Counted from the first letter of the stretch, positions 3,968 to 26,152 are shown. The stretch is DNA of 36,410 nucleotides from a bacterium (GCA_963663405.2 CAXXSM010000001.1:1-36410); one strand, 5' to 3'. A program made the numbers and translations. Notes: generated by a model from the letters alone, not told the origin.

Positions 3968-3969
3968 TG

Positions 3970-4431
3970 TCAGCGGAGCCCTTTTTTACTCAGACCCGTC
4001 TTTTCCACAATCCGTTCGACGGTCCGGCGTGAACAATCCACTTTATAGAGGCGTAAGATTTCTTGCCGCAAGTTCTCTCCCGACAAGTGAGGTTGTTCGA
4101 GTTTCCGGTGAATGATGAAGTTGACAATCTCTTGGTTGAGAGCGAGGAGGGGGCGGCGGCCCATGGAGGAGCCAAGTAAAGCCACGTAGCCCCGCTGCAT
4201 GAACATCCGTTCGAGCCGGTAGAAATACTCCCTGGAGAACCCAAAGAGGCGGCAGGCTTCAGCCACAGACATCGTGTCACTTCGAGCCGCGCGAAGCATC
4301 TCATATCGAACCTGGGGCAGGTCGAAGGGATCGAAGAAATCAAGAGTTTGGAACAGGGGGGAAGAGATTCGCTCCGGCTTTGGATTTAAGAGGCCTTCTT
4401 TTGCGAGGAACTGCGATTTCGTTTCGTTCAT
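3970..4431 (-). CDS. HTH DNA-binding accessory protein (153 aa) of the IS1-like element
   Basis: HTH motif SVAEACRLFGFSREYFYRL. ATG 4431 is chosen because copy 2 (34932-35393) encodes the identical 153 aa. Ends 2 nt before the transposase start. Confidence 0.82.
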   Translation of the reverse strand: MNETKSQFLAKEGLLNPKPERISSPLFQTLDFFDPFDLPQVRYEMLRAARSDTMSVAEACRLFGFSREYFYRLERMFMQRGYVALLGSSMGRRPLLALNQEIVNFIIHRKLEQPHLSGENLRQEILRLYKVDCSRRTVERIVEKTGLSKKGLR

Positions 4432-4466
4432 CGGTTCACTCCCATGGGCGGATTCAAGCATAAGGA

Positions 4467-4495
4467 ATTATACTCATGAAGGCGCAAAGTGTCAA
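4467..4495 (-). promoter_or_regulatory. Perfect-consensus sigma70 promoter of the IS1-like element
   Basis: Minus strand reads TTGACA (4495-4490), 17 bp, TATAAT (4472-4467). Both hexamers are conserved in copy 2. Confidence 0.8.
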
Positions 4496-4583
4496 CTATA
4501 TATGACGTTTTATTATTAATATATTCTTATTTTTATTGATATCCGACGTATATACGATTTCTATACGACATATATAGTTGACA
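4490..4583. repeat. 19-bp inverted repeat (18/19) overlapping the -35 box; candidate operator
   Basis: TGTCAACTATATATGACGT (4490-4508) vs ACGACATATATAGTTGACA (4565-4583). Also present at 18/19 in copy 2. Confidence 0.75.
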
Positions 4584-5095
4584 TGTTAATGAACGAAAAT
4601 AAGAGGCACACTACCCGCAACCTCTTGATATGATTGATTTTGGATGGTTCTATGACGAAGAGATAATTACGAGGAAAGGCTGCGACTAATCTACACCACT
4701 ACCGGAAATTCGATGTTCCTTTTTATTTCATAGTCCGCTATATGTTGGGCTAATTGGGTCAACAAAGGCCGGATTCCACCTTCCGCGCCGCTCTCGGCTA
4801 TTCGATGCGCAGCGATCATCCCATGCACCGGAAAGATTTGGTCAAAATAAATAATAGCTCGGCCAACATAATAGTCCCTAAAATCGCAATACGGATAAAT
4901 TATATCATTGATTTTTTGATCGGCCAAACACACAAATTCTCCCATTAACTCCTCAAACTCATCGTAGGAATTGAAATCCTTTTTTTGAAATTCATTCAAG
5001 GCCTCATTGACTCGATCTTCGACGAGATCCATCGACTTTCGGGGATCGATTTCCTCTAAAAGCGCTTTTAATTTTTTGTTCTTCAATGGCCTCTC

Positions 5096-5671
5096 CTATC
5101 TCGTGATACGGCGGTATGTATGCGCCATTTGCGACTTCGCGCGAAGAATGTCATAAATGATATTTTCCAATTCATCGCTATATTTTTCTGGATTAGTTAA
5201 ATCTATATCGGCAGCCAACAAACCGCCGTACTGTTGAAACAACTGCTTACACATCTCTTCCCGGTCCCTTGGATCATCTCTTTTGACATTGGCCGCAATA
5301 ATAACATTTGAATATCCTTGCATCGAACGCGTCTTTAAAGCATTCGCGATATAATCAAGGAGCATACGAATACCCCCATTCGCGCCGTTCTTCGCGTCTT
5401 TGAATAGAATCATGGAATCTTTTCTCGTTTGTTCTTGAAGAATTCTTTCGGCTTCTCCTTTCGCTTCGATTTTTGAAATGGTTCCTCCCACGGCGATACA
5501 TGTAGTAGTGTGATAACTGTAGTAATCACCAATTACCTCGAGAAAATCCTCGTATGTATTAATGGGAGGCGGTTTGGGATACTCGAGACGCGCATCGTCG
5601 TGCTTGTTCCCGATCATCTTTGCGATCGCGACATCATCCAACGCTCGTAATAGGTTATCGATTCTTGACAT
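5096..5671 (-). CDS. Hypothetical alpha-helical protein, 191 aa (paralog B); alternative in-frame start at 5830
   Basis: ATG 5671 (MSRIDNLL) has a GAGGAG RBS and aligns with the start of paralog A. Shared motifs TYEDFLE, AKNGANGGIRMLL, YGGLLAAD. Confidence 0.8.
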   Translation of the reverse strand: MSRIDNLLRALDDVAIAKMIGNKHDDARLEYPKPPPINTYEDFLEVIGDYYSYHTTTCIAVGGTISKIEAKGEAERILQEQTRKDSMILFKDAKNGANGGIRMLLDYIANALKTRSMQGYSNVIIAANVKRDDPRDREEMCKQLFQQYGGLLAADIDLTNPEKYSDELENIIYDILRAKSQMAHTYRRITR

Positions 5672-5842
5672 TGTCTTTCTCCTCTCAAACATGAGTTTTT
5701 GAATTCGCGAATTATAGAATCTATAGTCTGTTAATAGTTTTTTTTTGGTTTGATTCGGATTACCATAAGTTCTCGCATCACAATCCATTGTGTTGTAGAA
5801 AAAAATACCAGGATATCTCAGAACCTTCATTTGGATCTCCTC

Positions 5843-8127: not shown

Positions 8128-9280
8128 GATTGTGATTGTCCTTGTTGATTGCCGCTGTGATGAGCGTGATCGAATCCCAAACACCGGATTTCTTCGCCGC
8201 GTCAATCCATTCCGGTTCCATTGCCAGATACTGCGCAATGTTTTTGTATAAATCGGGGATTTTGATTTCCGCCTCTTCTGGTATCAATCCTTTTTTCCTC
8301 GCAGTACTATCGCCTCTATTTTGTTCGATTAACTTTTTCGTCCATTCCCTGCCTGCGAAATGACTCATACAAGACGGCTGAAGACCAAATTTCCCCGCGA
8401 GAAGAGAGGGTTGGAAACAATCCTCCGCGATCTCTTCCATGATCGTAAGAACCAGTTTACGAACTTTCAGGCGGCCGAGTTTTTGGATACAGGGCCGCAA
8501 CCTGGAAATATCCGAGGCTTTCTCATTCGCAATGAAGTCTCTCAATCGTTTTCGAGTGAATTGATCGAACGGAGAATCCGGCGCCGGATGATTCTCGCTT
8601 AATTCATCCAGACAGTCGTCGATACGCAAGAAACGGCCGGTAAACCGGAAATATTGGTCAATGATTCTTTGTATTCGTTCTTTCTCAACCGGCGTCCCAT
8701 TTTGAGCGTCCGGGATAAACGTTTCGAGCCATTTCTTTCTCTCCTGCCCAGGGAGCGAAAGTGGAAGGTACACAACAATCGTCATTCCGTTTCGTTCCCA
8801 GTTGTATCGGTTCCAGCCTTCAATCTCCCGTTGACATTCCCGCTGGGACCAAATGAAATGTCGATAGACCAATTTCTGGAATTCCCGTTCCTGCTCGATG
8901 AACTGTTCGAGTTTCGTGTCGTTCAATTCCGCCGTTTCCAATCCAGGGAACTTATGGAGGAAGGAACGGAATTGATTGCGGCAATCAGGACCGTGATTTC
9001 GATTATGGCCGCTCAATTCAGGGAGATTGATAAATTTATCAATCAGATGGTCGAATGTCTTTTCAGACAATGGTTCGTTATAAAGACTGAGCGCGTGGCG
9101 TAATTGAATTACAAATTCCCAGAAATTAAGGTTGTTCCTGTTGTGGGTATGAAAACAATACCGGTTTTCCAGGATTTCACGCAAAGCCGCTTCATCCGAT
9201 TGATGATAAATTCGGAACGAAAGATTGACTAAAGTTAATTGTGAATAATCTGTGATCTTTCGTAATTGTTTCATGATCAT
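8120..9280 (-). CDS. Hypothetical protein with C-terminal HTH; possibly a divergent sigma-factor-like regulator
   Basis: 386-aa ORF heading a translationally coupled run. HTH-like PSLLAGKFGLQPSCMSHF; N-terminal SDEAALREIL resembles ECF region 1.2/2.1. The sigma call is tentative. Confidence 0.55.
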   Translation of the reverse strand: MIMKQLRKITDYSQLTLVNLSFRIYHQSDEAALREILENRYCFHTHNRNNLNFWEFVIQLRHALSLYNEPLSEKTFDHLIDKFINLPELSGHNRNHGPDCRNQFRSFLHKFPGLETAELNDTKLEQFIEQEREFQKLVYRHFIWSQRECQREIEGWNRYNWERNGMTIVVYLPLSLPGQERKKWLETFIPDAQNGTPVEKERIQRIIDQYFRFTGRFLRIDDCLDELSENHPAPDSPFDQFTRKRLRDFIANEKASDISRLRPCIQKLGRLKVRKLVLTIMEEIAEDCFQPSLLAGKFGLQPSCMSHFAGREWTKKLIEQNRGDSTARKKGLIPEEAEIKIPDLYKNIAQYLAMEPEWIDAAKKSGVWDSITLITAAINKDNHNHG

Positions 9281-9562
9281 TATTGTTTATAAAAAAAAAT
9301 TTATTTTACTATCTGACGCTCGAATTCTATTGCGCTGCATATCCATCAATCATCTTCTTTTTTGAAAACGTCTTAACATTTTACGACCATCTTTTGAGTC
9401 TAATTCAACGTATTTTTATTCTGATCCATATATAGTGGGTTCTACTTATACCTTGATTAAGTATGTTCTAATCAACAAGAATTTAAGAGATCATTTCAAT
9501 TTTTTTTCAAAGCCATTCAGTTAATATCTTTTATCTGAATTATTTGTATTTTTTATCGCTGT

Positions 9563-11125
9563 CTATTCATTCTGTTGGTTTTGAAAACTGATTCTCTTAG
9601 TTTGATCCATAAAATTGTCTAAGGATCTAGCTAAAGACTTCGCTTTCTGATATTTCCCATCCGTCAAAGCTTGGTTCATCATGCTCTGGATCGTTGATTT
9701 CTTTTGAAGTATTGTTTGTAACCAATGTAAAGTGTTTGCTATTTCTCCTTGACATGGATTCATCTGAAATGCGAGATTTAAGGAATAGAACGCCGATTCC
9801 CAATAACTTTTTCGTAAAGCTTGTATTCCGTTTTCAATATTCTTTTTATATTGTTCAGTCCGATTCAATATCTTAAGTTGTGGACAACATCCATCTGGAT
9901 GATTGGGATATAATTCGTTTGCGCGTTCGAGAGTTTTAACTAATTCATATAAAGATAGAACATCCATGTTTTGGTTTATGTAGTGATAGATCTCTTTCAC
10001 CTGTTGATAGCGGTGATCAATTGTCTTCAGAGCTTGAGATGCTTCAAAATTCTTTAGTTGATGTTTAAGTACAATTTGATAACAATGTTTCGCATTGTCA
10101 TAATTTCTCTGTTCATATGCGTGACGGGCTTTTTGTAATAATTCTTCTATAAATTGTTCATTATATGATGGATGAACTATTTCTTTCTTTTTAAAAATGG
10201 TTTCTAAGATGGGTAGCAATTCAATCCCGCTTTGAAAGCGATTTAGTGGATTATAATCGATACATTCAGTTAAGAGAGAAAGATAGTCTGGATCATAATC
10301 TCCAAGAGACCGTGCTGTACTTGGATAAGAAAATTCTCTTTTTACATCGCCCGTGTGACTCAAGTAATAGGATCCGTCGGGATGAAGAAAGAAAGAAAGT
10401 AAAATCCCTAGACCAAAAATATCAGAACGTGTGTCTAAAACTCTATAATCAGCAGCATGAAAGTGTTCAGGACTGGCAAATAAAGGGTCAACCAGATGGA
10501 AGATCCATTCTTTCCAATTACGATGATAATAGTCAGGTGACATCCTTATAATTTCTGGTATGTGCAGAATATCCAGTTTAAAATCCTCGTTCTGTATAAA
10601 GACTTCCTTGGGAGACAGATTTAGATGAGGAATTCCTGCATGATGTAAGACTTCAACCGCTTTGCATAGTTTATGAAAATAAATCAGGTGGCATGATTCT
10701 TGTACTCGCCAATGGCTCTCTCCCGACTTTATCAAATCCAGCCAAGAATAATCTCCTACATATTCTTGAATAATAATGATAAGACCTATCCCTTCCTGTT
10801 GCGTGTGTTGAATATCCCATATTCTTTGGATATATTCATAGTTTGTAATCCGATCCGCAATGGATACAATTGAATTAATGAATCGTTGTGATTGTTCTGG
10901 GATATTGGGATTCGCAGCGATAATGGTAAGGAGCACGGTTTTAGAACTGACAGAATCCATGGCCATATAACGCAAACTGGTTTTGTTTTTTTTGTATAGT
11001 CTCTGTATTATAAACCGTTCCAATATACAGTCGCCAGTATTGAACTCAATAAGATAATCTGGTTCATTTCCAAAATTGACGCTCGGATCGAATTCCCTAC
11101 TTTGTTCATGATATTGATTGTTCAT
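9563..11125 (-). CDS. Ser/Thr protein-kinase-fold protein (probable pseudokinase) with C-terminal TPR-like repeats
   Basis: Kinase subdomains IIIIQEYV, LHHAGIPHLNLSPKEV, FASPEH, DTRSDIFGLG, NPLNRF. TPR-like ARHAYEQRNYDNAKHCYQIVL and ALRKSYWESAFYSLNLAFQMNP. Confidence 0.8.
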   Translation of the reverse strand: MNNQYHEQSREFDPSVNFGNEPDYLIEFNTGDCILERFIIQRLYKKNKTSLRYMAMDSVSSKTVLLTIIAANPNIPEQSQRFINSIVSIADRITNYEYIQRIWDIQHTQQEGIGLIIIIQEYVGDYSWLDLIKSGESHWRVQESCHLIYFHKLCKAVEVLHHAGIPHLNLSPKEVFIQNEDFKLDILHIPEIIRMSPDYYHRNWKEWIFHLVDPLFASPEHFHAADYRVLDTRSDIFGLGILLSFFLHPDGSYYLSHTGDVKREFSYPSTARSLGDYDPDYLSLLTECIDYNPLNRFQSGIELLPILETIFKKKEIVHPSYNEQFIEELLQKARHAYEQRNYDNAKHCYQIVLKHQLKNFEASQALKTIDHRYQQVKEIYHYINQNMDVLSLYELVKTLERANELYPNHPDGCCPQLKILNRTEQYKKNIENGIQALRKSYWESAFYSLNLAFQMNPCQGEIANTLHWLQTILQKKSTIQSMMNQALTDGKYQKAKSLARSLDNFMDQTKRISFQNQQNE

Positions 11126-11137
11126 AATCTTGCTTCC

Positions 11138-12988
11138 TCATGATTCAAATAGCATATTCGCTTTTACTTTATTTTCTATTTTTTGGAGCGCCTGAGTTAT
11201 AAATTCCTGAAGAAAAAACACAGGCTGATATAGATCCTGATCTTTATTTTGGATTTTCTTAAATATAGCTAATACAGTTTCATTGTATTCCTTATAGGAT
11301 TTATTCTCTTTGAAATCACTCAGCTGAAACGTCAAGACTTGGATCGTCTGAGAGTGAAACGGCCCAGGTATGACGATTAAGAGAAGGTTTAATACGATGC
11401 TTGGATTGAATTGATGTACTGGAATGACAACGCTTTGAGATATAATACTACTCTTTGATGGATTCCAGTCGATCTCTATCACATGCGCTGAGTGTAATAG
11501 TTCTATGTAATTTGTACATGAATCTCGATCTTTGTGATATTTTTCTACAATATGAGAGGCTTGTAACATAGGGATGTTCCACACTGTTGGATGCTGAACC
11601 TCAATCGGTCTCCAGCCACTTAGTGGTTCTTCTAATATGTCAGCCGCTCTTAGGAGATCGGTAAGAGAGAAATCTACTTTGACTGTGATTCTATGATTCA
11701 TCCGCCTCTCAATCTTCTCATCCTTAATATGAAATAGAGCCAATACAGAATTTGCCTTTTTATAAAATCCTAATTGTCTTAATATCGCTATATATCGTTT
11801 TACTGATTTATGTATCTTTGGATGATTAATTGGAAGTAAGGTAATTTGCTTTTGCCTGATGGATAATTCTTCTAGGATATTTTTTTGCTCCTTCGCAGAT
11901 TTTGCTTGTAGAGCCAAAGAAACATGCTCATAGCCAAGTTCTCCAAGTTGTGTAAAATATTGATTCAATTGTGCTAATGGAAGTTTCCCGGCTAGACTTT
12001 GTATATTGTTAATAATCGTTTGCGCCTGTTTCCTTCGATTGAATTCGTTGAGTTTTTGTATTACGTGTGAATCTGGATTGGTTACTTTGTAGCAGCGAAT
12101 CCTATCAATTTTCTTATAGTAGTCCAGTAAGTCACCATCAAAATGGTATATAAGAATTTCTCCTGCGCTATTCAAAAGATACAGGATTTGTTGGGATTCA
12201 GAACTGTGAATTGAGATCGTACCTTTAGGCAATATATGTTGATTGATAATTTCCATATCGTCGATTGAATAGACTTTCATCACCCCATCAAGATATCCGA
12301 CGGAGAGGAGATATTTATTAAACGGGCAAATTGTATAATAGGATCCATCTGGTATTGGAATCGACTGAACTTGTTCTATATCCAAGCGAAACAAAACCAA
12401 ATCAGTCATTCCTGGATATACAATCGCTTGCGCTTTTTGCCAATAGATCACTCTGGATTGATGGGATTTAGAGATGGGTTGTGGAAGTGAATATTCTGAC
12501 TCACTCACAGAATCTTTGTCATTCCAAACAACCAATTGTCCACAGGCCGTTAATCCTATAATTTCAGATTGTGGAACTTGAATTAATGAAAAGATGTTTT
12601 TGTTCTCTGTCTGGAATTGGACTGGTTTAGTATTCCATTCATCGATTGATTTAGTAAAACAACGATTCTGGTTATCACTAAAAATTATACGTTTTAAATC
12701 CTTGAAACAAACCGATTGAATAGAAGAGCCATGAAAGAACTTTTTTATTTTAATTGATTCTCTTACTGATTGTGAGCGCAAACCGGATAGGTGAAAGAGG
12801 AAGCCACGATCAGTGCCTAAGATTATTTGATCTAAATCCGAAGATATATGTAACGCTGTAATAAAGGAATCACGTGGTATCGTCATGATTGATTCAACAT
12901 GATCAGATCCGTAGATGTACCATTTCAATTGATCTCTCAGACCAAAAGTGGCAAACACAATATATTCTTTAACGCTACTCATGTTCAT
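11138..12988 (-). CDS. WD40-like beta-propeller protein with helical C-terminal half
   Basis: Blade-like repeats ITALHISSDLDQIILGTDRGFLF, IIGLTACGQLVVWN, LLSVGYLDGVMKVYSI, LYLLNSAGEILIYHF. Confidence 0.65.
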   Translation of the reverse strand: MNMSSVKEYIVFATFGLRDQLKWYIYGSDHVESIMTIPRDSFITALHISSDLDQIILGTDRGFLFHLSGLRSQSVRESIKIKKFFHGSSIQSVCFKDLKRIIFSDNQNRCFTKSIDEWNTKPVQFQTENKNIFSLIQVPQSEIIGLTACGQLVVWNDKDSVSESEYSLPQPISKSHQSRVIYWQKAQAIVYPGMTDLVLFRLDIEQVQSIPIPDGSYYTICPFNKYLLSVGYLDGVMKVYSIDDMEIINQHILPKGTISIHSSESQQILYLLNSAGEILIYHFDGDLLDYYKKIDRIRCYKVTNPDSHVIQKLNEFNRRKQAQTIINNIQSLAGKLPLAQLNQYFTQLGELGYEHVSLALQAKSAKEQKNILEELSIRQKQITLLPINHPKIHKSVKRYIAILRQLGFYKKANSVLALFHIKDEKIERRMNHRITVKVDFSLTDLLRAADILEEPLSGWRPIEVQHPTVWNIPMLQASHIVEKYHKDRDSCTNYIELLHSAHVIEIDWNPSKSSIISQSVVIPVHQFNPSIVLNLLLIVIPGPFHSQTIQVLTFQLSDFKENKSYKEYNETVLAIFKKIQNKDQDLYQPVFFLQEFITQALQKIENKVKANMLFES

Positions 12989-13682
12989 GGTTTTTATTTA
13001 TGGGGCTGATCGTCTGATTTTCCATAGGCCCTAATGAAAGCAAATCACTTATTTCAGTCTGGTTATTAAATCCATCGCTTGAATTTTGCTGTACGCTTTG
13101 TATTTGTCCAATAGGAGGGATTATATTCTTTGCGTCAATATCATTCGCTTCATTTATTCGTTGACTTTTTAACTGTGGTTGGTTCAATATGGTATGAACT
13201 TGATTAGGGCGTTTTTTTCGAGTTCCGGCTATGGCCCAATCACTGAGCGCCTGTTCAACGTGTTCAATAAGCAACAGCATCGTTTGACGGTGATGATCAA
13301 TTTGTTCGTACTGGTTCGCTTGTAGTTTCTCTGCTTTTAGGTAAGCATCTTCTACTTCATCCACATTCAATTTGTTTGTATCTGCGACAATGAGGAAAAG
13401 ATTGCGCGAACAACGAATCAGTTCTTTATTAAAGCGGCTTAAAGCCTGATATAAACTATCAAGATGCTTTAAGCACTGGTTTAATAACTGGTAGTACTGT
13501 TGACGGCTCATCATGTCACTTTTAGTATTGTCTGACCAGACTGGCGTTGATATTTCAGGAAATACAGATAACTGATCAAGAATCTGACTTGTTTTTTTCT
13601 GATATTTAACCAGTTCGCTGTCTTCGAATTGATTCATCCAATCAGGAATCGATTCTTTCATCGATTGACTAAACCAGTCCAT
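12975..13682 (-). CDS. Hypothetical alpha-helical protein, 235 aa
   Basis: Tightly coupled to neighbours (1-nt gap upstream, 14-nt overlap downstream); GGAG RBS. Confidence 0.75.
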   Translation of the reverse strand: MDWFSQSMKESIPDWMNQFEDSELVKYQKKTSQILDQLSVFPEISTPVWSDNTKSDMMSRQQYYQLLNQCLKHLDSLYQALSRFNKELIRCSRNLFLIVADTNKLNVDEVEDAYLKAEKLQANQYEQIDHHRQTMLLLIEHVEQALSDWAIAGTRKKRPNQVHTILNQPQLKSQRINEANDIDAKNIIPPIGQIQSVQQNSSDGFNNQTEISDLLSLGPMENQTISPINKNHEHE

Positions 13683-13683
13683 C

Positions 13684-14199
13684 TTACTTATCTCCTTTTG
13701 AATTCAACTTTGCTTCCATTTCTTGCCGGGCAAGTTGACTCGCTTCCTTTGCTTCCAGCGCTTTTTTGATTTCTTCTTGGAAGAACTCGATTTCTTCTGT
13801 TTCAGCTTCTATTACACGTTGTAGTTCTGAATTGATTTCCGTCGTTTTTATTTTGGATTCCGCTTCATTCACTTTTTGCATATCTGATTCAACACGTGAT
13901 TGGCGTTCCAAGTTTTCCTGAGTGATGTTTTCTGTCTCTGCTTGAATCTGCTCTAATACCTGATCCCTTTGTACGTAAATGTCCATCGATATCTGTTCTG
14001 CTGATTCCATTATCAATGAGACCGCTTCTGTGCCTTCCACCGTCCCTTCTAAATCCAATTTTTCTAACGTCTGACGTACTTGTTCCACTTCCTGTACGGC
14101 TTCTTCTAAATCCTGTTCTTTTTCATTGAGTGAATCCAGATTCTGTTCGATACGTTCAGAGATTTCATTTCTTGAATAGTGATTTCCTTTATGGTTCAT
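13684..14199 (-). CDS. Acidic coiled-coil protein, 171 aa
   Basis: E/Q-rich heptad pattern with a central LEGTVEG turn; starts 4 nt after the ATPase stop. Confidence 0.8.
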   Translation of the reverse strand: MNHKGNHYSRNEISERIEQNLDSLNEKEQDLEEAVQEVEQVRQTLEKLDLEGTVEGTEAVSLIMESAEQISMDIYVQRDQVLEQIQAETENITQENLERQSRVESDMQKVNEAESKIKTTEINSELQRVIEAETEEIEFFQEEIKKALEAKEASQLARQEMEAKLNSKGDK

Positions 14200-14203
14200 C
14201 AGA

Positions 14204-17004
14204 TCATCCTTTCTGAGTGGTTGGACGTAAGCGTTGCTTAAGCGAACTCAATCTTTTTAAAAATGATTCCGTATCGCGTTGAATTGTATTGTTAAATCTA
14301 TCGATTAACTGATCACGGTATTTTTTTATCTCAGGAAAACGATTACCATCTTCCTCTGTTTCTTTGATGACTGGCGAATATGTGTTAGTTTTGAAAATAT
14401 AAAAAAAGTGTTTTAAGCGACATTCGAACTTATGAATTTTCTGATATAAAGAGTTAAGATCAGTAGCCTTTTGAGTGGGTTGATGTAAGGCAGAAATCAA
14501 TTGAGTAAATTCTTCAGCAATCAGGATCCTTTTCTGATCGAATTGGTCCATATCTTCGTGTAACAATGAAAGATCTGCAGCGATGTTTTGTCGTTTGGTA
14601 TCTTTGTGCCAATCTTCATTTTCAATATGTGGAATGATACTTTCACTTATATGTACGTCATTTATCTTTTCATCAAGCGATGGTAGAATTGTTTTTATTT
14701 TTATTGGCTTATGAAATCCTTCGGTGTAAAGGTAAGCGTCTCCAGGCAGAAATCTCGCTATTTCTTCATGCTCCTTAGCCTTGAATAACATAGTTTGACC
14801 CAAAGCGATTCGTTCATCTTCTGCTACTTGCTTAAAGCCTACTTTAGTAGCCGTGTTTTTTATCACTTCCGCCGCGACAGCGGAAGGAAGTTGATCCGAA
14901 ATAATCAGCCCTACCTTGAGTGACCTCATTTCGGCCAACCAGCGAATAATAAACTCTGCCGCAAATGCCTTTGGATCTGGATTCGATTCTGAAACAGTAG
15001 CGTCTGTATTATTACCGACAAGTAAATGAGCCTCATCGAGAAATATCACATGACGCAAAGATCGATCGCAAACCGGTATCGTTTTGTAATATTCCTTGAT
15101 CAATGTGAGAACCACAAGAGTAAGAAATGCCATCTTTTCCACGGATAGACAATCAATTTCTAAAACGCAGGGATTGTTGACAATTTCCGGGATTGATGGA
15201 CTTGAATGACGACAATGAAATATTTTTCCAATATATCCAATCAAAAGTGGGCGTAAGCGGACATCCACGGCAGCGCGAATATCTGCGTATAGAGTACGTT
15301 CATAATGTTTCGCCTCTAAAATTATTTCAAAAATACGCATGAAATCACGTACCATAGGTGGATTATCTTTATCATAATTCTTATACAAAGTAGTTAGCGT
15401 TTCTTCAATTAATGAGGGAAGCGGACCAGACATTGGCATAGCTGCTTTAAAACAATGCATGATGTTATCGATATGCTCATTTTTTGAAATCCCAGGTTGC
15501 AATTCAAAAAAATTTATTTTAAATAATGATACATTCTCTTTAGCGGTATAAATACGTAGATCTTTTGCTAGACTGGAAATCCTTGAATCCGGATGATTTT
15601 TATAGAATTTAAATATCCGGCTATCGAGTTTTGCTGTATCAATGGCCAAAAAAGGAATGGATGAATGGTTACACGTCCCTTCATTGCTATCATTAAAGGC
15701 CCTTTGATAATTTCCACTATGCAATTGAATCTGCCAATTTCTTATAAAAGAGGTTTTTCCTGAACCAGGCATTCCAGATAAAAATCCGCCCTTAGGGAGT
15801 AGAGAATAACTTATATTGTATGGTATTTTCATATTATGTTGTTTTACATAATATGAAGAAAATCCTGTAAGTATTCCTTTAGATTCATGTATGATATCAG
15901 GATCAGTATCCATTCGCATGCATAATGGTGAATGATAATTCCCAATTGGAAGACGGATTAATCCCTCTAATTCATTACCCGGCGCAGTAAACAATAATCG
16001 TCGTAGATTCATATAAATCTTGGGCGTAGAATCAAGTTCTATTTCAGGTATAAAAACATCATAACATTTGACTCTATCTTGTAATAAATGGAAAACTGTA
16101 TCGCTGGACGTGAAGGTATCAATATTCCATGCGTTATCATCGAATCCACAGTTACAAAGTACATTGGCTATTAGTTTCGCGACAGATTGAGTTTGAGCGA
16201 AGACCGTAACACAAAATTGTAATTGTTTTTGAAATAGTGTTTCATGAAAGCGTTGTTGATTACGTAACACTTGCTTGGATAGAGGTTCTTCATACTGCAG
16301 TTTTTTTGTGGGAGAATTTATTGATTGATATGCCCAATCTTCAGTTTGGTTAGCAAGACACATATTGGTTAAATCAAAATCACTGCGGTCTCTCCGGTTG
16401 ATTGTATCTAATTTTGCTAAATATGCGGTGTGGTTTTCAAGTTCAAAGGCTATATCTGTTGGTTCAACTGTTAAAGTAATGAGAAGCTTCTCTTCAATTT
16501 GATTTAAAATCTGATCCAAATTGGAATAATCGTTTCTATCATTAGCATGGAATGACCTTAGAAACACATAGTAGGGTGGAATTTTTGAATTGTATTCCGA
16601 AGTATATAATGGTGAAAAACGATTGATTGACCTTGATACTTGTGAAACTGCGTGATATTCCTCCCATGGAATATGAGGTGTAACATTCTTCTTAAAAGTG
16701 TAAAATACGCTTAACGGCCCACGCTCTACAATCAAAGGAACCAAATTACTGGAGTCTTTCTCTTTACTATGTATAATTAAATATAACTGCAGACGGGATT
16801 GCGGATGATCAACGACACTGAGTGGATTGAATAAATACTGAAATGATAATGAACATGAATTGGATGGAAATTTTGAAATAGTTCTAGTGTATGGCGGGAA
16901 TTCTCTTTAATATTCTGACGAGCGTCACCATTATAGAAAAGAATATTACTAGATTCTGGATCTATGATAAATGGGATTCTATAAGAAATCATTTTATTTG
17001 ACAT
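14204..17004 (-). CDS. HerA/FtsK-like (DUF87-type) ATPase, ~933 aa if the single frameshift near 16866-16870 is corrected
   Basis: Walker A GMPGSGKT, Walker B VIFLDEAH, EMRSLKVGLIISDQLPSAV...NT. Adding one base after ...ELFQNF joins ORF 16777-17004 to 14204-16744 through an open frame (PSNSCSLSFQYLFNP...SSNLVPLIV). Confidence 0.82.
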
Positions 17005-17067
17005 AATTTTTTCAGGATATCTATTAAAAATTATATCGATTCGCTAACAGGGATTTATTATAGAAAA

Positions 17068-17948
17068 TTATTTTGAACACGTTGAGCAATTCATATATTG
17101 TTTTAAATCTATTCCATACCACCTTAAAATGCGCATTCCATCAACCTTATTCTCCAATGGGTGCCAATCCTTAATTTGAGACATAGGATCTCTGCGATTA
17201 AACCAAAGGTAATAGGGCATATTCAGGTCATCTTCCAGTGAGTGTAATGTGGTCGACTTATCTCTTATCAACTCCATAATGGCCAGCTTTACTGTCATAA
17301 AAGAGATAGGACTTATATCATTAGATAAACCAGGTTCAATAGGCATAGGTCGGTCTGAATAGGAGTATTTTAACGAATCCTTATTACTTGAAATCTCACG
17401 GTTTTCAGACATTTCTGGCAAGATTCCCAAATAACATTGGTAACAGGGAGTTTTGCTTGGCCTAACAATGAGGATCTGCCCCCGTATGCGCGCCGGAATA
17501 CCCCTGGATATATACATACTATTCCCTGTTCAACACAAATTTTATTAATTATTTTGGAACTTTCTTTATCCACTGTGGCGCATATTACTAAGTCAGATCC
17601 TCTTATGATTTCTTCTACCCTTGAATAACAATCCCAATCAATTTTTAAATCGCATTGGCAGACTTTCGCATAGGGATTGACCTCGTGAATGTGATCGCTC
17701 ACGGCTTTAACTTTTTTACGCCCAGCATGTGGACCGCCTATGATATGTCGAAATATGTTGCCGATTTCGTAACGATCGTTATCAACAAGGCTTGTATTCC
17801 CTAGCCCCGCTTTGACCAATCCATCGATTATTTGACTCCCTAAAGTTCCCACTCCAAGTACTATTACGTTTTTTTCCGCTAAATGATCGGCTTCTAGAAT
17901 CCCACAGTTTCTAGAATATAATTCTTCTTTTAGTGGTACGATTTGCAT
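17068..17948 (-). CDS. E1-like ThiF/MoeB adenylyltransferase, frameshifted at the C5 run 17479-17483
   Basis: YSRN arginine finger, GVGTLGS, DNDRYEIGNIFRH, PCYQC and C-terminal CSTC. One extra G gives FRRAYGG-QILIVRPSKTPCYQC. Confidence 0.85.
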
Positions 17949-18019
17949 TGAAGCAGGGATCCACTTCTTTGATGCCTGTAAGTAGTAGGATGTAACATTT
18001 TCGTTTAATAATTCTTTTG

Positions 18020-18466
18020 TTATTTATGAAGAATATCATCGGTAAGAATTCTTTCATTGACAACAATCCTGATATGATCATTTGAATAACCTATTTTATC
18101 AATATCAATGTCATCAAGTTCATTTACAGGATTGATTGAACCCGGTATAGTGTTGTAACGGTTTGTATGGCATGTTTGAAAACAAGCATTGTAAACCTCT
18201 CCATTATCCCACTCGAAAAAAGATATGGATTTACATTTACTGCATGCTTGCAATGATATGAATTCTTCTATTGGAAAAACAATGATCGGATTTTCACTAC
18301 CAACGATCGTGTCCTCAGGACTAAACCTAGGAGCGCTATCAGGATCGTCAAGAGAAGATTCTTCTCTTATTTGATTAGTGTCTCTGTCTGCGATTAACTC
18401 TTTACTGCTATTCTCCGCTGAATCTAAGTTTGATAAAATCTGGGATATCCAATCTTGCTCTATCAT
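18020..18466 (-). CDS. Hypothetical protein; probably the N-terminal domain of the E1 (second frameshift)
   Basis: One added A at CAT AAA (~18023) reads ILHK-ITKELLNENVTSYYLQASKKWIPAS-MQIVPLKEELYSR with no stop. Cys clusters CSKC and CFQTC. Confidence 0.6.
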   Translation of the reverse strand: MIEQDWISQILSNLDSAENSSKELIADRDTNQIREESSLDDPDSAPRFSPEDTIVGSENPIIVFPIEEFISLQACSKCKSISFFEWDNGEVYNACFQTCHTNRYNTIPGSINPVNELDDIDIDKIGYSNDHIRIVVNERILTDDILHK

Positions 18467-18917
18467 TTTTCATCCTCCTGCGTAAATTGTCTAAATACGA
18501 TTTAATGGTATTACCTGTTTTGAGATGTTCTTCATACCCGTTTAACCATAAATTCACAAGCTTCTTTATGTCGATCAATCTTTTATTTGAATTCCAATAG
18601 TGATTACAGATCTGCACAACGCCCTCAGGGCCATTCCTCCAGGTTTTATATATTTCACTCCCATTCAACGCATTTATTGTTTCTTGCGAATTAAATTTGT
18701 ATAAAGTAGTTGGATAAGTTATGTATATATGAGGAGTTACATCTGGATAAGTGTTTGGGATTTCACATTGAATATTGTAGTAATTTCCACTAAGTATAAA
18801 AAACACTTGACCTACAAGATATTGTTTCCCGTATTTATTATATAGGTAAAACTTATTGTTATCACGATTTGAATAATCTAATTCCATTTCTTCAATCTTT
18901 AATTCTGTAGATAACAT
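18408..18917 (-). CDS. E2/UBC-fold ubiquitin-conjugating-like protein
   Basis: YNIQCEIPNTYPDVTPHIYI (UBC P..YP..PP motif); GVVQIC candidate catalytic Cys followed by W; LWLNGYE helix. GAGGTG RBS. Lies between JAB and E1. Confidence 0.72.
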   Translation of the reverse strand: MLSTELKIEEMELDYSNRDNNKFYLYNKYGKQYLVGQVFFILSGNYYNIQCEIPNTYPDVTPHIYITYPTTLYKFNSQETINALNGSEIYKTWRNGPEGVVQICNHYWNSNKRLIDIKKLVNLWLNGYEEHLKTGNTIKSYLDNLRRRMKNDRARLDIPDFIKLRFSGE

Positions 18918-19944
18918 GATTCATCACCTCATATGGAGTATTAATATCTGTCATTCCAATTGAATACAAAAAATTGAAAGTTTGTTTTGATATGATCTTA
19001 TGTAAATAACTATTTCTATAATCTATAGTTGTTGTAAGTGCTTTACATTCTCCTTTTAATTTAACTCTATCCATAAATAGATCTATCGCATTATTATTTT
19101 CAATGATTTTTAACGTATTTTTTAATTCTACTTTTCGAAAATGTATACTAACAATTGATTGGCATAAATTATGTAAGTGATTAGGGATCAAATGAGGAGC
19201 CTCAACTAACACTTGATTAAGGAATTCAATGAACGCTTGATTGTATTTAAATAACTGAGGATTGTGCAATTCTGCAAGACGTACAGGACTCATCCCACGA
19301 ATGATTTTCATAGGACACCTTGTATAAAGACCATTTTTTGCGTCATAATAAACGAACGAATTCGCTCTGACAGAAAATGAAATTTGATTTTTGCGATTTA
19401 AAGGACAAGGTAGCGTCAGTTCCGTCTCAGCATTCTCATAGTCGGTGTACAATAAGACAAAAGAATCCTTTTTACTTATTCTTCTTTCATGGGTAAAGAT
19501 AATTTCACACGTTTGATCGATATTATTTCTGCGGGACATGGACGCCATGCGAAATTGATCTCTTGGTGATGGCTCAGATAATCCCAATTCCCAGTGTGAA
19601 TGTTGCTCACCATGGATTTGAATGTAATGCTCTGAATATTTCTGCACGCTCTCTTCTCTTAGACGGTCTAAATCCTGTTTAAAACGACTTGAAGAACAAA
19701 TTGATTTTGGGCCGGGTTGCGATGCATAACATATGATCGATCTACCTCCATGTGAACATAAACCATACAATTCACCTCCTATCTCTCTTCGAAATACTAA
19801 AAGCGACAAATAAGCGGAGAAAATCAACTCTAGTTCAAAAATCGTAATATATGTTTTACCAATAAATCTATCGAAGTATCGATATTTATAACCCAAAAAC
19901 TCATTTTGACTTTTAAAACTAATAGAACTTGATTGATCGTTCAT
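18892..19944 (-). CDS. JAB/MPN (Mov34) metallopeptidase domain protein
   Basis: REIGGELYG (catalytic Glu), PGPKS, HSH...EPSPRD (JAMM HxH..S..D motif). Confidence 0.82.
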   Translation of the reverse strand: MNDQSSSISFKSQNEFLGYKYRYFDRFIGKTYITIFELELIFSAYLSLLVFRREIGGELYGLCSHGGRSIICYASQPGPKSICSSSRFKQDLDRLREESVQKYSEHYIQIHGEQHSHWELGLSEPSPRDQFRMASMSRRNNIDQTCEIIFTHERRISKKDSFVLLYTDYENAETELTLPCPLNRKNQISFSVRANSFVYYDAKNGLYTRCPMKIIRGMSPVRLAELHNPQLFKYNQAFIEFLNQVLVEAPHLIPNHLHNLCQSIVSIHFRKVELKNTLKIIENNNAIDLFMDRVKLKGECKALTTTIDYRNSYLHKIISKQTFNFLYSIGMTDINTPYEVMNHVIYRIKD

Positions 19945-19979: not shown

Positions 19980-20008
19980 AGTATACTTAAAATCAAGAAT
20001 ATTGTCAA
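19980..20008 (-). promoter_or_regulatory. sigma70 promoter of the JAB-E2-E1-ATPase operon
   Basis: Minus strand TTGACA (20008-20003), 17 bp, TATACT (19985-19980), ~35 nt upstream of the JAB ATG. Confidence 0.75.
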
Positions 20009-22133: not shown

Positions 22134-23743
22134 GTAATTGGTCAGCCACCTGAAGTGAAAAATCCCTCTAAATAACATATTGTGTAATATCCCCCTTTAC
22201 AAATCCCTCTACTTTAGATTGACTACAGATATAGTCTATAATGCGAAATTGCTTGAGGGAAAATGCCCACAGAAGTCATTCGGAAACAGATTGGAGATTT
22301 TTTTAAATCAATCGGTCTCTGTTTCAGAAAAAGATCTCAAAAACTTAGCTCGCACTCTCATGGAAAATGGAGAAGACGGCATTCTATTTCTTCTTCTCCA
22401 ATGCTCCAAACGAATTCAAGAATTGGAGAAGGGACACCCATCATCAATCACCCCCTCAACGCCTTCTGGCATGATTCCTCCTTATCAAAAAGCATCTGCA
22501 CAAACAAAAAAGAAAAAGAAAAAAAGAAGGCGGGCGCCCAAAAGGGCCATCCAGGTTCCCGCCGTTCCAAACCTGATAAAATTGACCACCAAGAAGACCA
22601 TCGGCTCGACCGCTGTCCTGATTGCGGCGGGCCTCTCCAGCGATGCGATGGAGAGCAAAGCACTCGTTCTCGAATCATCGAGGATATTCCAGAGGACATT
22701 CAGCCCATAGTGACGGAACACATTATCCATCGAGATTATTGTCCGGCCTGCCAAAAACACGTTGAAACCGAAAATCGATACCGCTTTGCGAAAATCAACG
22801 ATTGGCAATCGCTTGTTGTGTTTGACGGCCTTCTGGCATTATGCGCTGGGGATGACGACGGCGCAAATTCCTGGACACCCTGAATTACCATTTGCACTTT
22901 CAATTAAGCAAGGGAGGCTTGATCCAGAAATGGCATCAGTTACGAATGATCTTGCTTGTCTGGTATGAAGCGCTGGCCGCCGAAGTCCAACAATCGGCGG
23001 TGTTGCACGCGGATGAAACCGGCTAGCGCGTGAACGGACAGGACCCATTGGTTATGGTGCTTCACCAACGATCACACGACCTTCTATATGGTGGATCGCA
23101 GCCGGGGCAGTCCGGCCCTGAAACGATTCTTCCAAGAAGAATTCAATGGGATTCTGGTCACGGACTTTTGGGCGGCTTACGATGCGGTCACGAATGGAGA
23201 CCGGCAGTTTTGTCTGGTTCATCTGCTGCGCGAGTTGGAAAAGGTGAACCAGCGGAATGCCGCGGATGAGTGGCAGGCGTTTTCCAAAAAGACAAAGCGT
23301 TTGATCAAAGACGCTCTTCGGTTACGCGCGCAGGAGGATTTCACTCCCCAAACCTATGCGTCCCGAATCGACCGGCTCTATGAACGCTTGTTGGATTTGG
23401 CGTTGGCCTCTTACACGGATCCTGATACGCGCCGTTTGGCGAAGCGCTTGGAGAAATACCGGGAAGAGTTGTTCACTTTCTTAACTCACCCAAATGTTTC
23501 GAGCGATAACAATCATGCGGAACGGGAAATCCGTTCGGCCGTGTTGATGCGGAAAGTCATTTATGGGAACCGCAGCGCCGATGGCGCATTGACTCAATCC
23601 GTTTTGATGACCGTGTTTCGAACTCTCAAACGGCGAGGCTATAATCCAATCCAGACGCTCGTCTCGACTCTCAGCGATTTTATACTAACCGAAAAATTGC
23701 CCCTTTTCCCACCCGTTATCACTTCACATGACTGACTTGATAC
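22134..23743 (+). mobile_element. IS66-family (single-ORF, ISBst12-like) element, 1610 bp
   Basis: Ends GTAATTGGTCAGCCA / rc GTATCAAGTCAGTCA. 8-bp TSD TTCGGAGT (22126-22133) vs TCCGGAGT (23744-23751), one mismatch. Confidence 0.78.
22263..23735 (+). pseudogene. IS66 TnpC-type transposase, several frameshifts and an in-frame TAG
   Basis: GAQKGHPG, CPDCG...CPAC zinc finger, LHADETG*RVNG (TAG at 23024-23026 replacing W), LVTDFWAAY, QFCLVHLLRE, DNNHAEREIR. The start position is uncertain. Confidence 0.85.
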
Positions 23744-23786
23744 TCCGGAGTAAACCGGCCACCTTTTCCGGGGATTCCGGCCACCT
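23744..23786. repeat. IS21-like terminal remnant (CCGGCCACCT twice, 22-bp period)
   Basis: TCCGGAGTAAACCGGCCACCTTTTCCGGGGATTCCGGCCACCT resembles reiterated IS21 end repeats. No istA/istB in the window. Confidence 0.5.
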
Positions 23787-23835
23787 TCTGTTGCTCTCTC
23801 TAAAACTCATTTACTTTTATGATAAATTGCGTATT

Positions 23836-24006
23836 CACTTTACTCTAGTTGAAGGAATTCCTTTGATTTGGTCCAATACGGCGCTATTGTGGTGATTACG
23901 GGCCAAAGAAGCATTAAGACGATATTGTTTGGGCTTACTAAAATCACCTCTGAATTGAGAACAATAGAGCCTATACACGTATTCAAAATGGCACTAGAGT
24001 AAAGTG
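23836..24006. repeat. Perfect 14-bp inverted repeat bracketing 171 bp
   Basis: CACTTTACTCTAGT (23836-23849) / ACTAGAGTAAAGTG (23993-24006). Confidence 0.7.
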
Positions 24007-24718
24007 CATAAGGAGATATGATATATTTTTCTCTTTTTTTTTACGAACCTGCCGCAACGAAAGGATCTTGTAGTAAGCCTGAAGTCGCAGCGGATCGCTT
24101 CATGTCATTTCTCCATCACGCTTTTCGGAAACAATCTGGAGCATGACAGCCCATTCCTAAAAAAACTCAGATTTCCTTCGTGTCGTTTTTGATATATTTC
24201 GTATGATTACATTCTCCCTTTTAGAATAATTTTCGTATTCGTCTATGGCCAGCCAGTCCGGAATTTCGGACTGGCCGTGCGGGCCACGGAATGGAGGCAT
24301 ACATCAAGCGAAAAAACGATATGAAGTCCCTCTTTTTTAGTGCTTGCTTCCGGTTAAAGATCGATTTCAAGCAAATGTTACAATGCCGATGGATTATTAG
24401 GAAGAGCGACAAAGAGGGATCGTTTATCTTTCCTCTACTTACCTGAAGTCAATGCATGGACTTTGGCAGTCCCATTGCTATCCCACTTGGATTTCCCCAA
24501 CCAAAAAACCTCCAACCACATCAGAGACACTTGGTAAAGAGTTTTTCACTCAGTCTGCTCCGCCACAGGGCTGCCAGACGTGAAACCATATTCTATGCAC
24601 TATTATAGGTTCTCTCATTTTCTCCGCAATTCGTCCAAGAAGGTAGACTTTCTGGACCACCAAGAAAATTCGTGGTTTAACGATAGATTTATATATAATT
24701 TCATGCATAGTTATTTCT

Positions 24719-24937
24719 ATGCAACAACCAACTGATCCTATCCTCACTTTTCCAAATAAACGTGGAAAGCGCCTTTCTCAAAATCTTGTTGTGTTACGAG
24801 AACAAAGGAGTAACGGCCAATTCACTATCACTATCCCCTCTGGAGTGGTAAAAGCCCTTCGTCTTCAAGGAGGAGACAAATTACAAGTGTTTATCGATCG
24901 TGGTGACATTGTATTTCGAGTGGTGAATGACAAATGA
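24719..24937 (+). CDS. AbrB/MazE/SpoVT-family DNA-binding protein
   Basis: GQFTITIPSGVVKALRLQGGDKLQVFIDRGDIVF swapped-hairpin motif; ATGA overlap with the recombinase. Confidence 0.8.
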   Translation: MQQPTDPILTFPNKRGKRLSQNLVVLREQRSNGQFTITIPSGVVKALRLQGGDKLQVFIDRGDIVFRVVNDK

Positions 24938-25701
24938 AAAAAAATGTATTTGGATATATAAGAGTTTCAACCGGTGAACAAGGAAAAAAATATTCATTAG
25001 AAGCACAAAAACTTGAAATCGAGTTGTATTGTAAAAATAAAGAATTAGAGTTACTACGGATATTTGAAGACCAGACCAGTGGAACCAAGTTACGGGAACG
25101 CGCCGGTCTTATGTCACTGCTCGATTCCGTCGATAAATCCTTGACAGCGGTCATCGTAACCGAGGCGGATCGTTTGTCTCGCGATGTTTTTCATTTCGGA
25201 TGGTTGTACACACATTTTATGCAGCAAGGCGTTGAACTCATCCTTATCAATGATCGAGTGGGAACGACACCGTCCGAAAGAGCGTTTTCCAAGGTCCGAG
25301 CAGTATTTTCGGAGTTTGAGCATGAATTAAGGCGAGCGCGTATTGAGCGTGGTTTGCTACGAGCACGCGAAAACGGTAAATTCATGAACCGTCCACCGCT
25401 TGGTTATCGTATGGAAAATAATCGCATAGTGATCGATGAAAAAGCAAGCGAAATTATCAAAGAAGTGTTCACCCTCGCATCGAATGGATCGTCGCTTTCG
25501 ATTATTTCTCAACGCACAGGAGTCAAACGCTCTACAGTTGGATCTATCTTGAAGAATCCATTCTACATTGATGGCGCTATTCATGGCCGTCATGATACGT
25601 TTCTTGATCCCAACCTATGGCGCTCTGTCCAGATGCGCACATCGAAGCGAAATCATAATCTACTCTCCCGTCATTCCGGTGAAAATAAACGAAAACTTTA
25701 A
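24934..25701 (+). CDS. Serine recombinase (resolvase domain plus short recombinase domain)
   Basis: GYIRVSTGEQ catalytic Ser, SLEAQ, DRLSRD, PPLGY, ILKNPFYIDG. Confidence 0.92.
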   Translation: MKKNVFGYIRVSTGEQGKKYSLEAQKLEIELYCKNKELELLRIFEDQTSGTKLRERAGLMSLLDSVDKSLTAVIVTEADRLSRDVFHFGWLYTHFMQQGVELILINDRVGTTPSERAFSKVRAVFSEFEHELRRARIERGLLRARENGKFMNRPPLGYRMENNRIVIDEKASEIIKEVFTLASNGSSLSIISQRTGVKRSTVGSILKNPFYIDGAIHGRHDTFLDPNLWRSVQMRTSKRNHNLLSRHSGENKRKL

Positions 25702-25726
25702 TAAGGTGTACGAATTCTCTATCCTT

Positions 25727-26152
25727 ATGGAAAGACAAAAAATCATAAATAAATACATCCTGTCACGAAAGATTTCAGAGAACTTTGATCTCACATTGAA
25801 GCGGTCGGGTAGAATAGTGAGTAAAATCTTTGATGTAATTGCGGAAGCGATCGTCAAAGGTGATCGAGTTCTGTTAGTCGGCTTCGGAACCTTCCATGCG
25901 AGAAATCGTAAAAGAAGACGAATCTTGCATCCAAGGACTCGTGAACCGATCGAACTTCCTGAACGACGAGTTGTTCAATTCCGGCCAGGAAAGAAACTCA
26001 AGAGAATGACGGCAAATCAATTGGATCAGTCGGAAGAAGAAAAGGGTGACCAACATGAACATGCGCACCCCCAGAATCAGTGTGAAGATTCAAATCAACC
26101 ACATTCCGATCAAAACACTCAACCAATGAATGATTATCCGGCTTCAGGATGA
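25727..26152 (+). CDS. HU/IHF-family DNA-binding protein with low-complexity tail
   Basis: GDRVLLVGFGTF...RRILHPRTREPIELPERRVVQFRPGKKLK. ATG 25727 avoids overlap with the recombinase. Confidence 0.85.
   Translation: MERQKIINKYILSRKISENFDLTLKRSGRIVSKIFDVIAEAIVKGDRVLLVGFGTFHARNRKRRRILHPRTREPIELPERRVVQFRPGKKLKRMTANQLDQSEEEKGDQHEHAHPQNQCEDSNQPHSDQNTQPMNDYPASG

Follow-up and report, generated by a model that had tools for sequence, protein, structure and literature searches.

The 36,410-nucleotide bacterial contig GCA_963663405.2 CAXXSM010000001.1:1-36410, analyzed here in full and called the window, carries on its minus strand a long series of co-oriented genes that includes the enzymes of a ubiquitin-type protein conjugation pathway. 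Positions 9563-19944 hold nine genes, present as eleven open reading frames (ORFs), which encode a JAB peptidase, an E2, a small protein, an E1, a HerA/FtsK-like ATPase (ATPase A), a coiled-coil protein, a helical protein, a WD40-like propeller protein and a kinase-like protein (Table 1). The co-orientation and the domain calls of the initial annotation hold: matches to JAB, E2, ThiF, Walker, propeller and kinase motifs were all found on the minus strand. The extent that it gave to the operon covers the genes lying there but is about half of the whole, which passes position 9563 and runs to base 1, where the contig ends. The array is about 20 kb long and the interval 9563-19944 is its front half. 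It carries a conjugation module of the Cap2/Cap3 class, lacking a ubiquitin-like protein (Ubl) and equipped with an unusual catalytic set, on an ATPase-kinase-sigma-like array that travels on an integrative element.

Table 1. Features of the array in the window, listed from the promoter match to the contig end (aa, amino acids; HTH, helix-turn-helix; IS, insertion sequence; HMM, hidden Markov model).
Feature	Position	Strand	Evidence or remark
Promoter match, TTGACA-17-TATACT	20008..19980	-	36 nt before the JAB ATG; consensus match only
JAB/JAMM peptidase, 350 aa	18892-19944	-	PADLOC JAB (Cap3-type) 2e-6
E2, UBC fold, 169 aa	18408-18917	-	Cys in QIC(H) motif
Small gene, 148 aa, E1 N-terminal domain as its own gene	18020-18466	-	Structure model
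E1 adenylation enzyme, ThiF/MoeB/Atg7 type	17068-17948	-	ThiF 4.8e-24; split by frameshift
ATPase A, HerA/FtsK-like, ~930 aa if read through	14204-17004	-	Walker A and B; split by frameshift
Acidic coiled-coil protein, 171 aa	13684-14199	-	Conserved neighbour of ATPase A
Helical protein, 235 aa	12975-13682	-	Disordered tail ends in short [LIF][SE][LM]GP motif
Beta-propeller (WD40-like) protein, 616 aa	11138-12988	-	Also helical and C-terminal domains
Ser/Thr-kinase-like domain with TPR-like helical region	9563-11125	-	Pkinase 1.3e-7
Sigma-70-like protein (sigma2 and sigma4/HTH), 386 aa	8120-9280	-	AlphaFold2 model, pLDDT 80.6
Partner of sigma-like protein, 243 aa	7507-8238	-	Anti-sigma-like by position and predicted contacts
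Lon (S16) protease domain fused to helical domain X, 555 aa	5843-7510	-	1xhk 3.4e-10
Xa, stand-alone domain X, GxxGG[LMI] motif	5096-5830	-	Without Pfam or PDB relative
Xb, 5' two-thirds, gene cut by IS	4691-5086	-	HMM positions 2-126 of 192
IS, ~1.9 kb, IS1-type DDE transposase and HTH ORF	2781-4704	not set	24-nt inverted ends
Xb, 3' third	2578-2805	-	HMM positions 132-189 of 192
ATPase B, TrwB/VirD4/HerA-like, 400-aa N-terminal region	1-2259	-	Pfam TrwB_AAD_bind 4.4e-6; cut by contig end

The front-half assignments combine catalytic residues with profile comparisons. In the JAB peptidase the JAMM residues E54, H115, H117, S126 and D129 (E, HxH, S, D) are invariant in 12 of 12 aligned sequences; its best PDB match is Cap3 (9ild), a weak one at E 0.11, and it has a conserved C-terminal domain with no assigned fold. 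The single E2 sequence gives weak UEV/RWD matches (about 0.06-0.09); compared with the PDB as a family profile, its top matches are all E2 enzymes of the UBC type (UBE2J2, 5.8e-4), and the Cys is invariant in 13/13. The E1 profile matches ThiF (1zud) at 4.5e-23 and Cap2 at 1.2e-13. ATPase A is placed in the HerA superfamily by its Walker A and B motifs together with HerA-type C-terminal motifs, at E-values that are weak to moderate (3e-5 for its profile against HerA 8wiv), and Pfam DUF87 is precomputed on some of its homologues. The Pfam beta-propeller matches of the propeller protein in the window are weak (0.008-0.017); clear WD repeats are found in homologues. The kinase-like protein had been called a pseudokinase, which is right for the window copy, where the beta3 Lys and the catalytic-loop D, K and N are lost, but not for the family, since all 13 aligned homologues keep these residues. 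The promoter consensus placed ahead of JAB was found at one place in the window, and 100 shuffles gave no match to it.

The JAB, the E2, the small gene and the E1 make up a conjugation module of the Atg7/Cap2 class that has no Ubl. A Ubl was sought around these genes: there are no small conserved ORFs and no intergenic room for one, and no small ORF upstream of JAB looks Ubl-like. The small gene itself was considered as a ubiquitin-like beta-grasp protein and rejected, as no ubiquitin fold stood among its Foldseek or VIA-wide structure matches, which had modest scores. Its AlphaFold2 model (pLDDT 82) retrieves N-terminal domain (NTD) entries of Atg7 in Foldseek at probabilities of 0.3-0.6 and Cap2 (7to3) at 0.25. 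In the VIA-wide comparison the Atg7 NTD ranks first (3ruj, Z 5.2, rmsd 3.4 over 82 residues), with MPN folds at Z 4-5 and residues 168-311 of Cap2, its linker, at Z 3.1. The small gene thus models as an Atg7-NTD, Cap2-linker or MPN-like domain, at modest scores. The accessible part of the Ledvina preprint describes the Cap2 linker as homologous to the N-terminus of Atg7 and as positioning the E2, and this homology, together with the Atg7-NTD-like small gene, assigns the module to the Cap2/Atg7 class, but in split form. The small gene is fused to the E1 in many homologues, and the E2 is a separate gene in all 14 loci that show one; many relatives have an NTD-E1 fusion with a separate E2, arranged exactly as in Atg7.

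The E1 is also unusual in its catalytic residues. Its crossover loop (from CxxC to EPGL) has no conserved Cys in any of 15 homologues and carries a Tyr in all 15, in place of the catalytic crossover-loop Cys of Cap2. A loop with an invariant Tyr and no Cys is shared with the E1s of Bub systems (class 6E), which act through a tyrosine oxyester according to the accessible text of PMC11601596. Xb was examined as a possible substrate and set aside, as its conserved C-terminal GR is present with and without the conjugation genes.

The array is conserved well beyond the window. ATPase A has 28 relatives in a word-indexed search of 5.8 billion proteins, and a profile scan of species-representative genomes yielded 41 ATPase A loci, mostly in Planctomycetota and Thermodesulfobacteriota and also in Lentisphaerota, Bacteroidales, Nitrospiraceae and Gammaproteobacteria. 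The gene order established by tblastn and ORF clustering is JAB, E2, small gene (often fused to E1), E1, ATPase A, coiled coil, helical, WD, kinase, sigma-like, partner, Lon-X, two 193-aa X paralogues and ATPase B. This order recurs in 17 of the 41 related loci, in at least five phyla, and its retention in 17 other loci rules out chance. The initial annotation had made its case depend on homologues occurring together in other genomes, and they do so in conserved order.

Conjugation is not the center of the system. The E1 is present in 17 of the 41 loci, accompanied by E2 and JAB where the contig permits, but in 12 others with visible upstream DNA the trio is absent while the rest of the array is kept (in the remaining 12, the upstream DNA is too short to judge). 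The JAB/E2/E1 trio is an optional add-on rather than the core of the array. Where it is present, ATPase A always follows the E1 directly, in 17/17 loci as well as in the window, in locus L182 and in two more copies in the window's own genome. The cultured bacterium Desulfocarbo indianensis SCBM is a host of the array, with two front halves and one back half (L007, L018, L147).

The back half carries what looks like a regulatory switch. With moderate confidence we regard its 386-aa product as sigma-like: nearly all best rows of the VIA-wide comparison of its model are sigma factors (SigB 8x6g, Z 6.5; SigW 5wuq, Z 6.0, rmsd 3.3 over 94 residues), and the conserved C-terminal region of the family consensus reads by eye as a helix-turn-helix. 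Foldseek gave the same model a probability of at most 0.3 and nothing at E <= 0.001. No Pfam family, sigma families included, matched in 19 members, and the ESM Atlas contained no usable match. Neither Pfam searches nor profile searches of solved structures gave any match for the sigma-like protein, its partner or domain X. Co-folding supports a predicted binding of the sigma-like protein to the 243-aa partner, with an interface score (ipSAE) of 0.69 against 0.37 for the best control; of 80 solved complexes 58 attained the mark that it passed, as did 2 of 110 mismatched pairs. At least 72% of contacts are common to the runs, the partner has a pLDDT of at least 66, and its contacts are predicted on both the sigma2-like and the sigma4-like parts. 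The Ser-Lys dyad of the Lon domain is invariant in 16/16. Domain X, the C-terminal part of the 555-aa Lon protein, recurs in the two 193-aa paralogues. ATPase B, about 820 aa at full length in relatives, and ATPase A are paralogues (hhalign 95.9%, E 5.8e-9).

The back half also ties the array to mobile DNA. ATPase B has 709 relatives, and counts were taken over 78 genome loci that hold it. The full back-half order is found in 34 of these, an ORF matching the AEP model in 59 (2 kb or more of DNA follows ATPase B in 58 loci) and an integrase match in 28. In relatives the array ends in a further X paralogue, an AEP primase (Pfam AEP-TOTE, 4.6e-30 and 2.4e-35) and a tyrosine integrase (PF00589, 5e-37). 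One complete chromosome has two 12,025-bp copies, 99.99% identical, of a unit composed of small genes, Lon-X, ATPase B, X, AEP and integrase, and the two cease to be identical about 114 bp beyond the integrase. The primase/integrase end and these near-identical 12-kb duplicates indicate that the array rides on an integrative element. It is part of an integrative mobile-element family of Planctomycetota, Desulfobacterota, Ignavibacteria and neighbouring phyla. Front-half genes accompany 21 of the 34 evaluable back-half loci.

The genome to which the window belongs was scanned as an assembly of 8.44 Mb in 170 contigs (46.9% GC), and its RpoB is nearest to metagenome-assembled genomes of Candidatus Omnitrophota, at 80-83% identity. 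It holds three or more copies of the array: the front halves on contigs C110 and C141 share 93.5% identity across 12.2 kb, C141 also has a back half with AEP and integrase, and C64 and C28 contain fragments. The window copy has no nucleotide similarity to the other copies. Four 660-aa ORFs in this genome (C4:72290-74272, C86:27539-29521, C110:31247-33229, C141:13627-15609) match the P-loop of ATPase A at about 138 bits and are probably a repeated element-borne ATPase. The same genome has nine consecutive minus-strand ORFs of about 424-760 aa at C2:15225-35370, with weak matches to the WD model, which are tandem repeat-protein paralogues.

The copy in the window is damaged. When the DNA is read against the family consensus, one base is missing from the G-run at 17479-17483, which splits the E1, and one from the A/T-runs at 16866-16875, which splits ATPase A; the homologues of both have a single reading frame throughout. 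Xb is cut in two by the IS, of which further copies lie at 31855 and 33744. Among 36 one-base gaps between two other copies in the same genome, 11 fall in homopolymers of at least three. The window copy is probably dead or mis-assembled. In two other loci, the region of the E1 N-terminal domain has an in-frame stop (L002:6878-7088) or a frame change (L003:8247-8426); with these breaks, damage to the conjugation module is not limited to the window. GC content steps at 9000-9600, between 32-39% in the JAB-to-kinase block and 41-48% in the sigma-like-to-ATPase B block, and by this step the two halves of the window copy may differ in history. Beyond the promoter end of the array, positions 22180-36410 are mobile-element debris, with split IS66 pieces, IS4/DDE fragments and a resolvase overlapping an HU-like ORF; a truncated integrase lies amid this IS debris at 26630-27391, on the far side of the array. 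Two pairs of repeated blocks were also seen (28132-28431 = 32470-32769 and 29398-29697 = 35666-35965).

Several loci differ in what accompanies the front half. In L017:14681-17597 and L040:3726-6854 the WD and kinase genes are separated by an inserted block of five genes; the block encodes an AAA+ ATPase, two paralogous 190-aa proteins, a Cys-rich 135-aa protein and a coiled coil, and it may be an alternative accessory module that replaces the conjugation trio. L032:11764-14681 has, directly after ATPase A, a type IIG-like DNA methylase/restriction gene and a PIN-domain gene, as read by eye. Directly upstream of the array in L017, L020 and L035 is a divergent pair that reads by eye as an extracytoplasmic function (ECF)-type sigma factor and a zf-HC2-like anti-sigma factor. 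A divergent gene for a membrane and coiled-coil protein of about 400-465 aa lies upstream of JAB in L004, L007, L018 and L025, and a gene of the same type lies upstream of the sigma-like gene in L166, L169, L188 and L190. An Orc1/Cdc6-like AAA+ gene follows beyond it in some loci. These upstream genes indicate that the front-half genes sit between conserved element genes.

Comparison with known systems gave no match to a described one, as the initial annotation had anticipated. No PADLOC system model matched, and the generic matches were to Cap2/Cap3-type E1 and JAB, to HerA, DndH and mad8 P-loops, to MkoA and PD-T4-6 kinases and to PrimPol; the sigma-like protein, its partner, Lon-X and X gave none. 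The arrangement is absent from the operon classes in the accessible parts of Iyer et al. (2006; Table 1) and of the later CBASS, Bil and Bub papers. No description of the array was found in the literature searched; the supplementary operon tables of the CBASS, Bil and Bub papers, which lie outside that search, might list these E1/E2 genes. The absence of the defining partners of such systems was confirmed as well: this is an E1/E2/JAB operon without a CD-NTase, cyclase, Ubl, sirtuin or nuclease.

The closest system is the Cap2/Cap3 module of type II CBASS (antiphage signaling systems based on cyclic oligonucleotides), class '6b' in the accessible part of Iyer et al. (2006). The two share an E1 adenylation domain, a Cys E2, a JAB, the lack of a Ubl, an Atg7-NTD-like domain between E2 and E1 (fold scores modest, Z 5.2 and 3.1), an optional regulator beside its presumed target, and carriage on mobile DNA. 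They differ in that E2, NTD and E1 are separate here, or form an NTD-E1 fusion, instead of one Cap2 polypeptide. The array ORFs in the window include no CD-NTase or other NTase in Pfam or PADLOC and no nucleotide-activated effector, and the neighbor is a HerA/FtsK-like ATPase. With Atg7 and Atg3/Atg10, the array shares an N-terminal E2-recruiting domain fused to a homodimer-type adenylation domain and a separate E2 gene. It lacks an Atg8/Atg12-like Ubl and the crossover-loop Cys of Atg7, its E2 profile matches canonical UBC enzymes instead of Atg3/Atg10, and the likeness to the Atg7 fold is modest (Z 5.2, Foldseek probability 0.3-0.6). A JAB linked to the E1 is also seen in type I Bub. Bub systems have a Ubl, a serine E2 and a DUF6527 protease, whereas the array has no Ubl, an invariant E2 Cys and no match to DUF6527 (PF20137). 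In Bil (class 6C) the Ubl, BilA, has a C-terminal Gly; the array has no beta-grasp protein. Class 6a, an E2-E1-JAB triple fusion with a metallo-beta-lactamase (MBL) in the accessible part of Table 1 of Iyer et al. (2006), differs from the separate genes of the array, which gave no MBL match.

A large central P-loop ATPase of the HerA superfamily is common to the array and to Sir2-HerA, DUF4297-HerA and NurA-HerA. The array lacks a Sir2, NurA or PD-(D/E)xK partner, has two paralogous ATPases, and its ATPases carry N-terminal regions of 300-400 aa with no assigned fold. The defence system MADS consists of a methyltransferase and eight mad genes; the P-loop and kinase matches of the array to mad8 and mad6 are partial, and no methyltransferase matched. 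The array shares with TOTE the AEP of Pfam AEP-TOTE in relatives and TPR-like regions in the kinase protein. Of the TOTE components (TPR, OB, TBP and Effector, in the accessible text of PMC12458937), no OB/cold-shock or TBP protein was recognised in the array, several of whose proteins have no assigned fold.

We consider the best explanation, at a probability of about 0.5, to be that the interval makes up the front half of a conserved array, about 20 kb in size, on an integrative element, and that the conjugation trio, added before ATPase A in some copies, would tune a sensing complex and a sigma switch. Gene content and order, catalytic motifs (intact throughout the family in JAB, E2, E1, Lon and kinase), the optional trio, the primase/integrase linkage and the damage can be read directly from the loci. 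The steps of the mechanism are drawn by analogy with type II CBASS, and the substrate, the direction of signaling and the sigma/anti-sigma/protease logic are conditional on that analogy. The E1 would adenylate the C-terminus of an array protein, with ATPase A as first suspect because it is always the next gene after the E1. The protein would then pass to the E2 Cys, possibly by way of the invariant crossover-loop Tyr, and be ligated to a target, and the JAB peptidase would trim or reverse the linkage. Conjugation would in this way tune a cytoplasmic sensing complex of ATPase A, the coiled-coil and helical proteins, the WD40 protein and the kinase. The output would be the sigma-like protein, held by its partner and freed by the Lon-like protease, and the freed switch might turn on element genes for induction, transfer or host arrest.

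Several observations weigh against this explanation. The window copy cannot be assumed to be functional. The sigma-factor matches, at Z 5-6.5, are under the chance-match level that the tool notes for helical folds, and Pfam is silent. No substrate was found. No conserved C-terminal Gly or Ala goes along with the trio in ATPase A, the coiled-coil protein or the helical protein. Front-half genes are missing from the fetched DNA of 13 of the 34 evaluable back-half loci, which indicates that the two halves can work apart. The contig ends inside ATPase B, and the primase and integrase are therefore out of view for the window copy. An integrase beside a system is also typical of defence islands.

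A possible but doubtful alternative is that the array or its front half is a putative self-contained anti-phage or anti-plasmid defence system carried as cargo, in which ATPase, WD40 protein and kinase would sense infection, conjugation would prime the response in the manner of type II CBASS, the effector would be the Lon-like protease, ATPase B or the AEP, and the integrase would be a mere neighbor. E1/E2/JAB trios are so far known, in the accessible parts of the papers, from CBASS, Pycsar/MBL, Bil and Bub. The AEP falls in a Pfam family named after the TOTE conflict system, and the ATPases and the kinase partly match the PADLOC models mad8, HerA, DndH, MkoA and PD-T4-6. The front half occupies a variable slot between conserved element genes that takes other cargo elsewhere (the restriction-modification-like and PIN genes of L032, the AAA+ five-gene block of L017 and L040), and the distribution is sporadic and crosses phyla. 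However, neither Pfam nor PADLOC searches recognised a nuclease, NADase, pore-former or other killing domain; the back half, the AEP and the integrase move as one 12-kb unit, a better fit to an element backbone than to cargo; and ATPase A is a paralogue of the backbone ATPase B. The conflict system of the initial annotation is thus one of several readings of an array that terminates, in relatives, in AEP primase and integrase genes and there behaves like a mobile element. The role of substrate receptors that it gave to the WD40 and TPR domains is a putative one.

The same primase and integrase, adjoining an ATPase B that matches TrwB_AAD_bind and is named in some sources a type IV secretion DNA-binding or conjugative DNA transfer protein, would also suit DNA-transfer and maintenance machinery on an element that would resemble the integrative and conjugative elements of actinomycetes. 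ATPase B, and perhaps A, would then be an FtsK/VirD4-type translocase, the AEP a replicase and the integrase the means of insertion, with kinase, WD40 protein and conjugation enzymes regulating only the timing of transfer. The several copies per genome and the identical duplicates are in keeping with this. We nevertheless regard it as improbable, since convincing transmembrane segments are absent from all core proteins of the array, the N-terminal anchors that coupling proteins have are missing from the ATPases, and among the conserved genes none for a relaxase or a mating pore was seen. The secretion link of the initial annotation found no support and was rejected for the same want of membrane segments. 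We give still less credence to a provirus whose conjugation front half would serve host take-over or counter-defence, while ATPase B would package DNA, the X paralogues would be structural or scaffold proteins, the Lon-like protease would act in maturation and the sigma-like protein would redirect transcription. No capsid, portal, tail or terminase family was matched in any search. The 820-aa TrwB-like ATPase is unlike the small packaging ATPases known in the HerA/FtsK superfamily. What this account does explain is the order protease-X, X, X, ATPase, X, which resembles a morphogenesis block, and the company of a sigma-like factor, a primase and an integrase, each of which temperate viruses commonly carry. 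Element control, defence and transfer are the candidate roles of the array, and the initial annotation as a whole is partly supported.

Within the element-control explanation, a more specific joint version can be framed, which is unlikely to hold in every part. In it, an Atg7-like NTD-E1 with a Cys E2 and a JAB, lacking both a Ubl and an E1 Cys, would pass the C-terminus of a HerA-type ATPase through a Tyr oxyester to an E2 thioester, and would thereby set a sigma/anti-sigma/Lon switch that decides the fate of a new mobile-element family. If true, prokaryotic ubiquitin-type conjugation would gain a third chemical variant, and no other free-standing bacterial system would come closer to the Atg7-Atg3/Atg10 arrangement.

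Few operon classes of bacterial ubiquitin-type conjugation are known, and each new one so far has come with a novel chemistry or type of substrate. The novelty here lies in the wholly different setting of a Cap2/Cap3-class module, which on a mobile element adjoins a HerA-like ATPase, a kinase and a sigma-like switch, in a split architecture resembling that of Atg7, and in a mixed catalytic set that joins a Tyr-type E1 loop to a Cys E2, which was not found described in the literature searched. The window itself contributes just one decayed copy. The carrier element family, marked by ATPase B and its 709 relatives, looks widespread in little-studied phyla, and no name for it was found in the literature searched. 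With Desulfocarbo indianensis SCBM as a cultured host, these questions become experimentally accessible. The array bears on the origin of Atg7 and its E2s, and on protein conjugation as a control device of mobile elements or their hosts.

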